From the NCBI RefSeq assembly GCF_041248615.1, contig NZ_CP158426.1: a stretch of DNA of 64,000 nucleotides. One strand, given 5' to 3'. Shown in pieces: positions 15,001 through 27,000 of the stretch. The position numbers are program-made. The stretch's first letter is position 1. The number at the start of each line of letters is the position of its first letter. The stretch comes from Escherichia coli (GTDB taxonomy: Bacteria > Pseudomonadota > Gammaproteobacteria > Enterobacterales > Enterobacteriaceae).

Positions 15001-18000
15001 GGCGATCCGGACGATCTGATCCTCAAACTTGCCGATATGCCGGGCGAGAAAGTGGCGAAGGTCAAAGTGGGATTGTACGAAGCCGTGCGCGACGGCATGG
15101 TGGTCAATCTGTTGCTGGAGGCAATTCCGGATCTGCATTTGCGTCTTGACGCGAACCGCGCCTGGACACCGCTGAAAGGCCAGCAGTTTGCCAAATACGT
15201 TAACCCGGATTATCGCCACCGCATTGCTTTTCTCGAAGAGCCGTGCAAAACCCGCGATGATTCGCGAGCGTTTGCCCGTGAAACCGGCATTGCCATTGCC
15301 TGGGATGAAAGCCTGCGCGAGCCGGATTTTACCTTTGTGGCTGAAGAGGGCGTGCGCGCGGTAGTTATCAAACCCACGCTCACGGGCAGCCTGGAGAAAG
15401 TACGCGAGCAGGTAGAGGCGGCGCACGCGTTGGGGCTGACGGCGGTGATCAGTTCATCTATTGAGTCGAGCTTAGGCTTAACGCAACTGGCGCGGATTGC
15501 CGCCTGGTTAACGCCAGAGACTATTCCAGGGCTGGACACGCTGGATCTGATGCAGGCGCAGCAGGTACGTCGCTGGCCGGGTAGCACGCTGCCTGTCGTG
15601 GAAGTTGATGCGCTGGAGCGGTTGTTATGATCTTCTCTGACTGGCCGTGGCGTCACTGGCGGCAAGTGCGGGGAGAAGCCATCGCCTTACGTCTTAATGA
15701 CGAGCAACTCAACTGGCGCGAGCTTTGTGCTCGCGTCGATGAATTAGCCTCCGGCTTTGCGGCGCAGGGCGTTGTTGAGGGCAGCGGTGTGATGTTGCGG
15801 GCGTGGAATACGCCACAAACGCTGCTCGCCTGGCTGGCGTTACTGCAATGCGGGGCGCGGGTGCTGCCCGTGAACCCTCAGCTGCCGCAACCGTTGCTTG
15901 AAGAATTGCTGCCCAATCTTACGCTGCAATTTGCGCTGGTGCCGGATGGGGAAAACACGTTTCCGGCATTAACTTCGCTGCACATTCAGCTGGTTGAAGG
16001 CGCACATGCCGCTGCGTGGCAGCCGACGCGTCTGTGCTCAATGACGTTAACCTCTGGTTCCACTGGCTTGCCGAAAGCCGCTGTTCATACTTATCAGGCT
16101 CATCTTGCCAGCGCCGAAGGGGTGTTATCGCTGATTCCGTTTGGCGATCACGATGACTGGTTGCTCTCTTTACCGCTGTTTCACGTCTCCGGTCAGGGAA
16201 TTATGTGGCGCTGGTTATACGCTGGTGCGCGGATGACGGTGCGTGATAAACAGCCATTGGATCAAATGCTGGCAGGCTGTACTCACGCTTCACTGGTGCC
16301 AACACAACTCTGGCGTTTGCTGGTTAACCGCAGTTCCGTTTCCCTGAAAGCGGTGTTACTTGGTGGTGCGGCAATTCCAGTCGAGTTGACGGAACAGGCG
16401 CGCGAGCAGGGGATTCGTTGCTTTTGCGGCTATGGTCTGACCGAGTTTGCCTCCACAGTGTGTGCGAAAGAAGCCGACGGTCTGGCAGACGTCGGTTCGC
16501 CGCTGCCGGGTCGGGAAGTGAAAATCGTAAACGACGAAGTGTGGCTGCGGGCTGCCAGCATGGCAGAAGGTTACTGGCGTAACGGGCAACTGGTTCCACA
16601 GGTTAATGATGAAGGCTGGTGCGCCACGCGCGATCGCGGTGAGATGCATAATGGCAAGCTGACCATTGTCGGACGTTTAGACAATCTGTTCTTCAGTGGT
16701 GGCGAAGGCATTCAGCCAGAAGAAGTCGAGCGCGTTATTGCTGCACATCCTGCGGTTTTGCAGGTGTTTATCGTTCCCGTTGCTGACAAGGAGTTTGGTC
16801 ATCGACCGGTAGCGGTGGTGGAGTATGACCAGCAAACCGTTGATCTTGGCGAATGGGTGAAAGATAAGCTGGCCCGTTTTCAGCAACCGGTGCGTTGGTT
16901 AACGTTGCCGCCTGAACTGAAAAACGGCGGTATTAAAATTTCACGTCAGGCGCTAAAAGAGTGGGTGCAACGTCAGCAATAATTAACCCTCCGTTTCACT
17001 TCTCATTTCTGCCATTCCATTGCCGTTGATAAAGAGTTTATCTGTTAATCTGTAAATTGATGTGAAAACTCTTAGCAAACAGGATAATGCAATGGAATGG
17101 CTGGTCAAAAAATCGTGCTGCAATAAACAAGATAACAGACATGTACTTATGCTCTGCGATGCTGGCGGCGCGATAAAAATGATCGCCGAAGTGAAGAGTG
17201 ACTTCGCCGTGAAAGTGGGGGATTTACTCTCCCCTTTGCAGAATGCGCTTTATTGTATTAATCGTGAAAAGCTGCATACGGTGAAAGTCCTCTCGGCAAG
17301 CAGTTATAGCCCCGATGAGTGGGAACGGCAGTGTACAGCGGCAGGGAAAACTCAGTAACGTTGTTTTGTCGTGGGCAGGAAAATCAACATCAACCCGCTC
17401 ATAATACAAGCAACTCCCAGTAGTGCCTTCAGCGAAAAAGTTCCTTCCCAGCCGGGAAGTATCATTGATGCAATCCATACCAGCACATAGCTCATACTGA
17501 GCAAGGCATAGGCTTTGCTTAACGCAAGTTTATGTAGCGTTTTATACCAACAAAAAACGGAAAGCAGATAACCCAGCAGCCCGAGTAACAGTATCCGGGC
17601 ATCCAGGCCAAAAGCTAACAGCGCCGCGATAAAATCCCATAAGTGCGTCATCGGCGGTAGATGACTCGCCGCATAACCCAGGCTTAATTGCGCAGCTGAG
17701 GCAATAATGACGCTGAATAATCCCCACATCAGGCCCATTACACCGTACTCCCGAGGATCACAATGCCGCCAATAATGAACGCCACCCCACACCAGTGACG
17801 CAGTGATACCGGCTCGTGCCACAGTTTTACTGCAGCCAGCGTCACCCAGACAAAATTCAGACTTAACATCGGGTAGGCAATGCCTACCGGTACGTTCTGC
17901 AAGACCAGCAGCCAGAGCACCATGGCAAGACCAAGACAAGCCAGCGCCAGTCCCAGCCACAGCACGATATGTTTGCGCCGTTTGTTTATCGCCACAAAGC

Positions 18001-24000: not shown

Positions 24001-27000
24001 ATAGCCCGGCGTTAAGACTTCAGCTTGCGGTGCACGGCCCCAGGTTTGTCTGTCATAGGCATCGACACCCAGACCGTGAAATTTTAGCATCCGTAGCTGG
24101 CGGGCAAGGTTTTCATTATCAGTAACAATCAGGCCACCTTCCGCACAGGTAATATTTTTGATGGCGTGAAACGAAAAAATAGCGGTACCTTTTGCGCCAA
24201 TATGTCGGCCTTTGTAATACGTACCGACGGCATGGGCAGCATCTTCGATAACTGCGATGCCGTAACGTTCGCCAATGGCGCGAATGGCGTCAATATCTGC
24301 TGGCGCACCGGCATAATGCACCGGAATGATGGCTTTAGTGCGTGGCGTAATGGCTGCTTCGATCGTTTCAGGCGTGACCATCAGCGTATCGCGGTCGACA
24401 TCCACCATTACCGGCGTTGCACCCAACAAGGAGATCATATTGAGGGTTGAAACCCAGGTCAGGGAAGGCGTAATCACTTCATCGCCCTTGCCAATTTCCA
24501 ACGCCATTAGCGTGATATGCATTCCGGCGGTGGCTGAACTGACCGCGATGGCATGCTGATTTCCCGTCAACTGGCAAAAGGCTTGTTCAAGCGCCTGATT
24601 CTTCGGACCGGTTGTGATCCAACCGGATTCGAGAACCTCTTTAACTGCAGCGAGTTCCTCCACGCCCATTGCTGGTCGCGAAAAAGGCAAAAATTCTGAC
24701 ATTGCTTTTCCTTCCGCCATTGAATACCTGTCCACTTATATTTGCTATAAAGAGTGTTGTGTATATTTTGCCATTTAGAGCGAAATTTTAAGGATAGAAT
24801 ATTAACTTAACCTTAAGAAACTAATATTAGACGTAAATATTGAAATTTTTATATTTTTTCTTATTTAGGCTTTGCATTTGGCAAAATTTTGAGGCATTTT
24901 GCCGGCATCGCAGGATTTTTAATATTACACCAACTGCTAATTATCGCCAGAAATGTCGCTCAATTTCACGGTAATTGTCTGGTTGCGCTTGTCTATAGGT
25001 GGAGTTTACGTGTTAGCTTTTTGCCGCTCTTCGTTGAAGTCAAAAAAATATTTCATCATTTTACTGGCGCTCACTGCAATTGCCGGACTGGGTACTCATG
25101 CCGCCTGGAGTAGCAATGGTTTGCCACGTATCGACAATAAAACGCTGGCCAGACTGGCACAGCAGCATCCGGTTGTCGTTTTGTTTCGCCATGCTGAACG
25201 TTGCGATCGTTCAACCAATCAATGCTTGTCAGATAAAACAGGTATTACGGTCAAAGGTACCCAGGATGCCCGTGAACTGGGCAACGCTTTTAGTGCTGAT
25301 ATCCCTGATTTCGATCTTTATTCCAGTAATACCGTCCGGACCATTCAGTCGGCGGCCTGGTTTTCAGCGGGTAAAAAGCTGACGGTAGATAAACGACTTC
25401 TTCAGTGCGGTAATGAGATTTATAGTGCAATTAAGGACTTACAAAGCAAAGCGCCTGATAAAAATATCGTTATTTTCACCCATAATCATTGCCTGACATA
25501 TATTGCTAAAGATAAGCGTGATGCGACATTTAAACCTGATTATCTGGATGGTTTAGTCATGCATGTGGAAAAAGGCAAAGTTTATCTGGATGGGGAATTC
25601 GTTAACCACTAAATTTTCAATCTGACAGCCAGTAATGGCTGTCATCATTATTACAGAAGACCTTTCAAACGTAACGTTTTTTGGGTGGCGACATTCAAAT
25701 CATAGTGCGCCAGATCTTCAGGTTTTACCCACGCGTAGTCCTGAAACTCTTCGTTTATTTTCACTTCTCGGTTGGCAGAAACGCAGTCAAAAATCAGGTA
25801 AATCATATAAATCTCTTCCTTGCGACCATCTGCATACGTCTTGGTGCGAATATCATCGCTGAAGGTCCACGGCGTGATTTCTGTCAAAAGCAGCTGTTCT
25901 CCCAGTTCTTCGCGAATTTCGCGGCGTAGTGCCTCTTCAATTCGTTCGCCAGGCTCTACGCCGCCACCCGAAAGCGCCCATTGACCGGGGAAAACGCCGC
26001 GATCGTCGGCCATTTTACACAGCAAATAAGCACCATCATTTTGAATCAAAGGGCATACAATAGTCCGTTGTCGCACGGGGATATTCCTTATAAATAAAAA
26101 GAAACCATGAGAATACGGTAACTCAGAAATATGTGAAAGTGACAGTAATCTCTTTTGCGATGATAACTGCACTTATTATTATTTTTGTGTGTATCGGTAA
26201 AGTGTGTTTATTTTTTCGGCGTTTAATTATTTAAGAAGTATTTAGTTACAATAAGTGACTAGATCCCTTTTTTCGCTCATTGAATCCTCTGTGCCAGGCA
26301 GTACAATCCCGCAGCTTTGGGAATTTTGATTTATTGCTTGTGGGAGAGGGGAAAATGAAAAAAATTGCGCTAGCAGGTCTGGCCGGAATGCTGTTGGTTT
26401 CTGCATCGGTCAATGCAATGAGCATCAGCGGCCAGGCGGGTAAAGAATACACCAATATTGGTGTCGGTTTTGGGACTGAATCAACGGGCCTGGCGTTAAG
26501 CGGTAACTGGACACATAACGACGACGACGGTGACGTCGCGGGCGTGGGGCTGGGGTTGAATCTACCTCTCGGGCCGTTAATGGCGACCGTTGGCGGAAAA
26601 GGCGTTTACACCAACCCGAATTACGGCGATGAAGGTTATGCCGCAGCGGTAGGAGGTGGTTTGCAGTGGAAAATTGGCAACAGCTTCCGTTTGTTTGGCG
26701 AGTATTACTACTCTCCGGATTCGCTCTCCAGCGGTATTCAAAGTTATGAGGAAGCGAATGCTGGCGCGCGTTACACCATTATGCGTCCAGTGAGTATTGA
26801 GGCGGGCTATCGCTACCTGAACCTTTCTGGTAAAGACGGTAACCGCGACAACGCCGTGGCTGACGGCCCGTATGTTGGGGTTAACGCCAGTTTCTGATCC
26901 CTTCCGGCGCGGCATTCTGTCGCGCCATTCAGTTTCTTACTACGCCTTATCTCCCTTTGCGTTATAGTGATTCGATAACAAAAGCAGGAGATAACCATGT

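Follow-up and report, generated by a model that had tools for sequence, protein, structure and literature searches.

PmrA (BasR) footprints at arnB-type promoters are known for both Salmonella and Klebsiella (PMC2565834; PMC3973317), and the verified Salmonella boxes share one design: a first half-site CTTAAG, a second half-site xTTAAT, and a spacing of 5 bp (PMC3973317). The Salmonella pmrD promoter contains a PhoP box, CTATTGCCGTTTTGTTTAT, that was DNase-footprinted; it is directly oriented, its distance to the -10 hexamer is 12 nt, and the leader measures 27 nt (PMC3335776 Table 1). A single direct-orientation PhoP box, 12 nt upstream of the -10 hexamer, defines promoter architecture I (PMC3335776). 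The same Salmonella promoter is bound and repressed by PmrA (PMC3335776; PMC2681069). In Escherichia coli, arnB promoter fusions are PmrA/BasR-dependent (bioRxiv 10.1101/2020.05.05.080051; PMC8151780), and PhoP-dependent expression of pmrD at low Mg2+ has been reported (PMC2565834). The analysis reported here concerns the pmrD-arnBCADTEF locus, for modification of lipid A with 4-amino-4-deoxy-L-arabinose (L-Ara4N), in a 64,000-base stretch of E. coli chromosome (the window). The window is identical, with 0 differences, to positions 1699672-1763671 of the chromosome of E. coli NRZ14408 (NZ_LT599825.1), described as a clinical isolate with mcr-1 (PMC10269488).

The locus is, almost certainly, the canonical and unaltered E. 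coli lipid A L-Ara4N modification locus together with its connector gene, pmrD (Table 1). The observations that carry this reading are gene content and integrity, motif matches, conservation, and orthology to footprinted sites. Gene calls were taken from the RefSeq annotation of identical records and from independent translation, and the two agree. None of the eight genes contains an internal stop codon, and upon translation all have the lengths of their K-12 orthologues. Amino-acid differences from K-12 number 1-9 per protein, and 31 over the seven Arn proteins together; PmrD differs by K82T and V83A. Protein families were checked against NCBIfam equivalog cut-offs, with profile coverage considered: all eight proteins, and Ais as well, exceed their cut-offs with alignments that cover the full profile. 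K-12 is collinear with the window across 16 kb around the locus, at 97.7% identity and without insertions or deletions. An earlier reading, made from the sequence alone (the sequence-only reading), had described a complete and intact locus with the expected chromosomal circuitry, and both descriptions hold.

All seven arn genes are on one strand in canonical order; their junctions are coupled, and the flanking genes ais, pmrD and menE are present in the window. Of 80 orthologous loci from other Enterobacterales, fetched with ArnA as query and in each of which arnB was then located, 79 had the same gene order. Two of the junctions, arnA/arnD and arnT/arnE, are 4-nt ATGA overlaps; three (arnC/arnA, arnD/arnT, and arnE/arnF) are 1-nt overlaps of the form TAATG or TGATG; and a 3-nt gap separates arnB from arnC. 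The tight coupling seen in the sequence-only reading is real, but its wording, ATGA or 4-nt overlaps, fits only two of the six junctions. That reading also gave no strands: the arn operon is on the minus strand and pmrD on the plus strand. The two converge, arnF and pmrD overlapping by 7 nt (17352-17358). A scan of the 16900-17352 region found no terminator-like site on the minus strand downstream of arnF, so arn transcripts may read antisense through pmrD and its promoter, a possible if speculative route of interference. The terminator-like matches that the scan did return lie inside coding sequence, at about chance level.

Chromosomal matches to a 9-kb query around the locus were obtained in 5422 of 5426 complete E. 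coli genomes, and 5411 of the 5426 have the full pmrD-arn locus. In one strain, E. coli 720632 (NZ_CP025842.1), an IS1A element marks a deletion that begins within the pmrD PhoP box and reaches the ais start codon (window equivalent approximately 17030-25009), taking out pmrD and the entire arn operon.

The PmrA-type repeat that had been noted before arnB, CTTAAG-N5-GTTAAT, is present and is the sole perfect match to CTTAAG-N5-NTTAAT in the window, where 0.00 were expected (none of 100 shuffles produced one). No other window site comes within one mismatch of the consensus, and two-mismatch matches are scattered. A relaxed pattern, YTTAAK-N5-NTTAAK with at most one mismatch, gave 6 matches against 6 expected, only the arnB site standing out; a match upstream of yfaZ, at 26230, is of the kind expected by chance. 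Nor does the window contain a second PmrA box for ais or pmrD within two mismatches, barring the palindromic CTTAAG half-site on the opposite strand. The box is identical in sequence to that of K-12. Among relatives, E. albertii, S. enterica diarizonae, and those Citrobacter species that were examined each have a site with at most one mismatch between -115 and -124 relative to the arnB ATG, and 18 of 74 orthologous arnB upstream regions have such a site; the chance for each 300-nt upstream region, by simple base-frequency arithmetic, is about 0.002-0.01. The Klebsiella/Kosakonia/Enterobacter group has sites of the CTTAAT-N5-CCTAAT type near -175, in agreement with the published Klebsiella box. 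In alignments of close relatives, the box forms a conserved island amid divergent upstream DNA.

A TAnnnT hexamer is kept 10-11 nt past the box in 13 species. This spacing suggests that the PmrA box takes the place of a -35 element and that arnB transcription would start near 24778.

The distance from box to gene depends on which arnB start codon is used. The RefSeq call is 24702 (379 aa); that of the K-12 record is the equivalent of 24720 (385 aa; six codons longer). The start at 24702 is probably the correct one and is preferred here, because the AAGGA Shine-Dalgarno sequence before it is invariant across the species aligned and because in Citrobacter the upstream ATG runs directly into an in-frame stop codon. 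Relative to 24702, the box occupies -115 to -99, its proximal edge 98 nt from the ATG; from the K-12-style ATG the distance is 81 nt. The earlier figure of about 80 bp is right for the K-12 start but not for the conserved one.

A cis change, in the arn promoter or in the coding sequence itself, could in principle raise the polymyxin tolerance of the isolate, which is clinical and colistin-relevant. At 24777 (minus strand), near the predicted arnB transcription start, the window has T where K-12 and most E. coli genomes have C, and the seven Arn proteins differ from K-12 as counted above. However, the PmrA box and the predicted -10 hexamer are the same as in K-12; 358 genomes, O157:H7 among them, match a 61-nt arnB promoter segment of the window, T at 24777 included, at 100% identity; substitutions occur at ordinary between-lineage density; and mcr-1 in the isolate suffices to explain resistance (PMC10269488). 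A resistance-conferring cis change was rejected, since many genomes share the promoter variant and the divergence from K-12 is evenly spread, without insertions or deletions; such a change is barely credible. The sequence-only reading had drawn no resistance mutation from the locus, rightly. This is an already known locus of the core E. coli chromosome in its wild-type configuration, and it gives no sign of altered regulation.

Upstream of pmrD, the repeat GTTGA-N6-GTTTA reported by the sequence-only reading is present at 17025-17040 on the plus strand. Its hexamers match 9 of the 12 positions of KGTTTA-N5-KGTTTA, that is (T/G)GTTTA-N5-(T/G)GTTTA, leaving three mismatches. Three results speak against the regulatory assignments made here. 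The window holds 184 sites as good as this one against 122 expected; the GTTTA-N6-GTTTA core, at one mismatch or fewer, occurs 8 times against 2.9 expected, mostly inside genes; and a consensus promoter scan gave no sigma-70-type promoter at either predicted site (arnB or pmrD). The last result is expected, because these would be activator-dependent promoters without a -35 element. As for the first two, the PhoP site is indistinguishable from background by sequence statistics alone, and can be called only through orthology and position. In motif scans, which had been proposed as a check, the PmrA box stands out as unique, but the PhoP box does not rise above chance.

Motif statistics having failed to separate the site, orthology was used. 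In a 13-species alignment of pmrD upstream regions, the E. coli site corresponds column for column to Salmonella TATTGC-CGTTT-TGTTTA, and so shares its alignment columns with the footprinted box CTATTGCCGTTTTGTTTA(T/C). In all 13 species the downstream half-site keeps an unchanged GTTTA core. Between the end of the box at 17040 and the first base of TAAATT at 17053 is an exact 12-nt gap of the architecture I kind; pmrD transcription would then start near 17064, with a leader of about 28 nt. The whole 109-nt menE-pmrD intergenic region is identical to that of K-12. The Salmonella site is off-consensus too: it was assigned to submotif S2 (PMC3335776; PMC2681069), and, although footprinted, it is missed by a single consensus matrix (PMC2681069). 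Moreover, a PhoP box has been marked in the E. coli pmrD promoter (bioRxiv 10.1101/2021.07.26.453917), and PhoP-dependent expression of E. coli pmrD is on record (PMC2565834; bioRxiv 10.1101/2021.07.26.453917; bioRxiv 10.1101/2020.05.05.080051). Set against the mismatches and the abundance of equal sites, this evidence makes it very improbable that the repeat is a chance match without PhoP binding and that pmrD is PhoP-independent in this strain.

The pmrD start ATGGAATGG is kept in all species of the upstream alignment. Around it, at 17087-17099, are three ATG triplets in three frames (ATGcaATGgaATGg); full-length PmrD is encoded only from the second, at 17092, 6 nt past AGGA. The start-site array described at pmrD of E. 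coli and Shigella matches this three-ATG layout (bioRxiv 10.1101/2021.07.26.453917).

Together, these features suggest the following working model, in which the Arn steps are those of established Arn-enzyme biochemistry. The C-terminal domain of ArnA would oxidatively decarboxylate UDP-glucuronate (UDP-GlcA), the product of Ugd, an enzyme that is likewise required and whose gene lies outside the window. The resulting 4-keto sugar would be transaminated by ArnB to UDP-L-Ara4N, and this in turn formylated by the N-terminal domain of ArnA. ArnC would transfer the formylated sugar (Ara4FN) to undecaprenyl phosphate (Und-P); ArnD would remove the formyl group; and ArnE together with ArnF would flip the lipid-linked sugar across the inner membrane. 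Finally, ArnT would place the sugar onto a lipid A phosphate, lessening its negative charge and thereby polymyxin binding. Phospho-PmrA, bound to the perfect repeat at 24817-24801, would activate a single arnBCADTEF transcript, the seven genes of which would be translationally coupled by stop and start codons that overlap or abut. Phospho-PhoP would bind the degenerate CGTTGA-N5-AGTTTA box, 12 nt upstream of the pmrD -10 hexamer; and PmrD would slow the dephosphorylation of PmrA by PmrB, prolonging the life of phospho-PmrA. For this strain itself, binding at both boxes, the transcription starts and the phenotype are predictions.

The PhoP arm may be effectively silent in E. coli, the PmrB phosphatase overwhelming PmrD and BasSR acting alone, with the genes and the PmrA arm as described above. 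Earlier studies, as summarised in bioRxiv 10.1101/2020.05.05.080051, saw no connector activity in E. coli, and resistance mutations in this species fall mainly in PmrAB, not in PhoPQ or mgrB (bioRxiv 10.1101/2020.05.05.080051). Yet induction of an E. coli arnB reporter by low Mg2+ combined with iron or pH 5.8 requires phoP, pmrD, and pmrA (bioRxiv 10.1101/2020.05.05.080051), and pmrD gives back to Shigella flexneri its Mg2+-regulated polymyxin resistance (bioRxiv 10.1101/2021.07.26.453917). The PhoP-to-PmrD-to-PmrA connection of E. coli requires simultaneous stimulation of PmrB, by iron or mild acid (bioRxiv 10.1101/2020.05.05.080051). This condition dependence reconciles the earlier negative reports with a working connector, and a silent arm is unlikely. 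A functional, if conditional, PhoP-PmrD arm is the reading adopted here.

Within E. coli, the pmrD promoter exists in two forms. The window, K-12, and about 80% of complete genomes have CAATAATTAACCCTCCG directly after the menE stop codon (16973-16998), whereas 1095 of 5426 genomes (20%) have GATTAAGAAATCATTAG at that place, with a repeat, ATTAAG-N5-ATTAGT, that resembles a PmrA box. A 201-nt probe of this promoter found 3617 genomes at 99% identity or more, 655 at 90-95%, and 440 at 80-90%: divergence of the pmrD promoter within the species is unusually deep. The same repeat occurs in E. albertii, and similar ones in Citrobacter (ATTAAG-N5-ATTAAT) and Salmonella (ATTAAT-N5-GTTAAT); the pmrD promoter of the window has no PmrA-box-like repeat within two mismatches. 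In the alternative allele, 46 bp separate the repeat from the PhoP box downstream; the footprinted, repressing PmrA box of Salmonella lies 35 bp upstream, closer by 11 bp, or one helical turn. The second PhoP half-site of the alternative allele is the consensus GGTTTA, that of the window AGTTTA. These comparisons raise the tentative possibility, more doubtful than not, that the repeat serves PmrA repression of pmrD and that the lineage of the window lost a negative-feedback arm that a fifth of the species has kept. If so, E. coli strains would differ in the wiring of the PhoP-PmrD-PmrA circuit.

Table 1. Features of the pmrD-arnBCADTEF locus, its predicted control sites, and gyrA (window coordinates; NF numbers are NCBIfam equivalogs, with score and cut-off)
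Feature	Position	Strand	Description
PhoP box of pmrD promoter, CGTTGA-TAAAG-AGTTTA	17024-17040	+	non-consensus variant, called by orthology and spacing
Predicted pmrD -10 hexamer, TAAATT	17053-17058	+	architecture I spacing; TGTAA conserved across species
pmrD	17092-17358	+	88-aa connector protein protecting phospho-PmrA from PmrB; NF011994, 174 bits vs 96
arnF	17352-17738	-	flippase subunit; NF002816, 139 bits vs 99
arnE	17738-18073	-	flippase subunit; NF011625, 211 bits vs 92
arnT	18070-19722	-	lipid A L-Ara4N transferase; NF009784, 814 bits vs 567
arnD	19722-20612	-	Und-P-Ara4FN deformylase; NF011923, 522 bits vs 382
arnA	20609-22591	-	bifunctional formyltransferase/UDP-GlcA oxidative decarboxylase; NF005998, 1260 bits vs 777
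arnC	22591-23559	-	Und-P Ara4FN transferase; NF007986, 673 bits vs 529
arnB	23563-24702	-	UDP-Ara4N aminotransferase, 379 aa; NF008658, 738 bits vs 631, profile positions 1-378
Predicted arnB -10 hexamer, TAAAAT	24790-24785	-	10 nt past PmrA box; conserved TAnnnT; identical to K-12
PmrA (BasR) box of arnB promoter, CTTAAGGTTAAGTTAAT, CTTAAG-GTTAA-GTTAAT	24817-24801	-	perfect match to published consensus
gyrA quinolone-resistance region	54699-54713	+	gyrA at 54453-57080; codon 83 TTG (S83L), codon 87 CAC (D87H)

The window as a whole runs nuo, elaD, men, pmrD, arn, ais, nudI, yfaZYX, rhm, glp, inaA, nrdAB, yfaL, ubiG, gyrA, which is the K-12 order reversed. As had been remarked from the sequence alone, it includes a quinolone-resistant gyrA (S83L and D87H). 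At codon 87, His is less usual than Asn. E. coli isolate 362 (Madrid; NZ_OW967178.1) differs from the window at 5 positions in 64 kb: two are in gyrA codons 83 and 87, where 362 has the wild-type TCG and GAC, and the other three are at 5362, 25986 (nudI), and 34758. A scan of the whole window against Rfam gave no RNA family at gathering score. Farther from the arn genes, elaD is a frameshifted pseudogene (6693-7917), rpnE adjoins a truncated open reading frame (32628-33833), and an IS1397-family, IS3-like transposase lies between inaA and yfaE (43873-45221).

The locus says nothing about the colistin susceptibility of the isolate. The deciding factors are pmrAB, phoPQ, and mgrB, which are not among the window genes, as the sequence-only reading had stated, and mcr-1 in NRZ14408. 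What is gained is a confirmed annotation with small errors mended, and a PhoP box that can be called through orthology though not through motif statistics.

Among the closest known systems is the locus of E. coli K-12 (b2259; b2253-b2258 and b4544; formerly pmrHFIJKLM, pbgPE, yfbE-H), with the same order, strands, lengths, junctions, and arnF/pmrD overlap. The differences amount to about 2.3% nucleotide divergence, with one single-nucleotide polymorphism in the arnB leader/start region (24777) and four nearer ais.

Salmonella is another. The PmrA box of its pbgP (pmrH) promoter has the form of the window box and shares its place at -115, reading CTTAATGTTAATTTAAT in S. diarizonae where the window has CTTAAGGTTAAGTTAAT. 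The pmrD PhoP box aligns in the same columns, and in both cases 12 nt separate it from the -10 hexamer and the leader is about 27-28 nt, although the half-sites differ (TATTGC/TGTTTA in Salmonella, CGTTGA/AGTTTA in the window). Negative feedback on Salmonella pmrD goes through a further PmrA box, some 35-38 bp ahead of the PhoP box, and the window has no such PmrA box; the E. coli PmrD protein is the weaker, condition-dependent connector of the two (bioRxiv 10.1101/2020.05.05.080051).

In Klebsiella pneumoniae, pbgP/arnB belongs to a feed-forward connector loop. There, arnB is also preceded by a PhoP box and by a second promoter that depends on PhoP, whereas E. coli arnB has no PhoP box (PMC2565834). 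About 170 nt separate the Klebsiella PmrA box, CTTAAT-N5-CCTAAG, from the start codon, and PmrA activation proceeds through a direct repeat of hexamers with 5-nt spacing, a form of repeat also present in the window.

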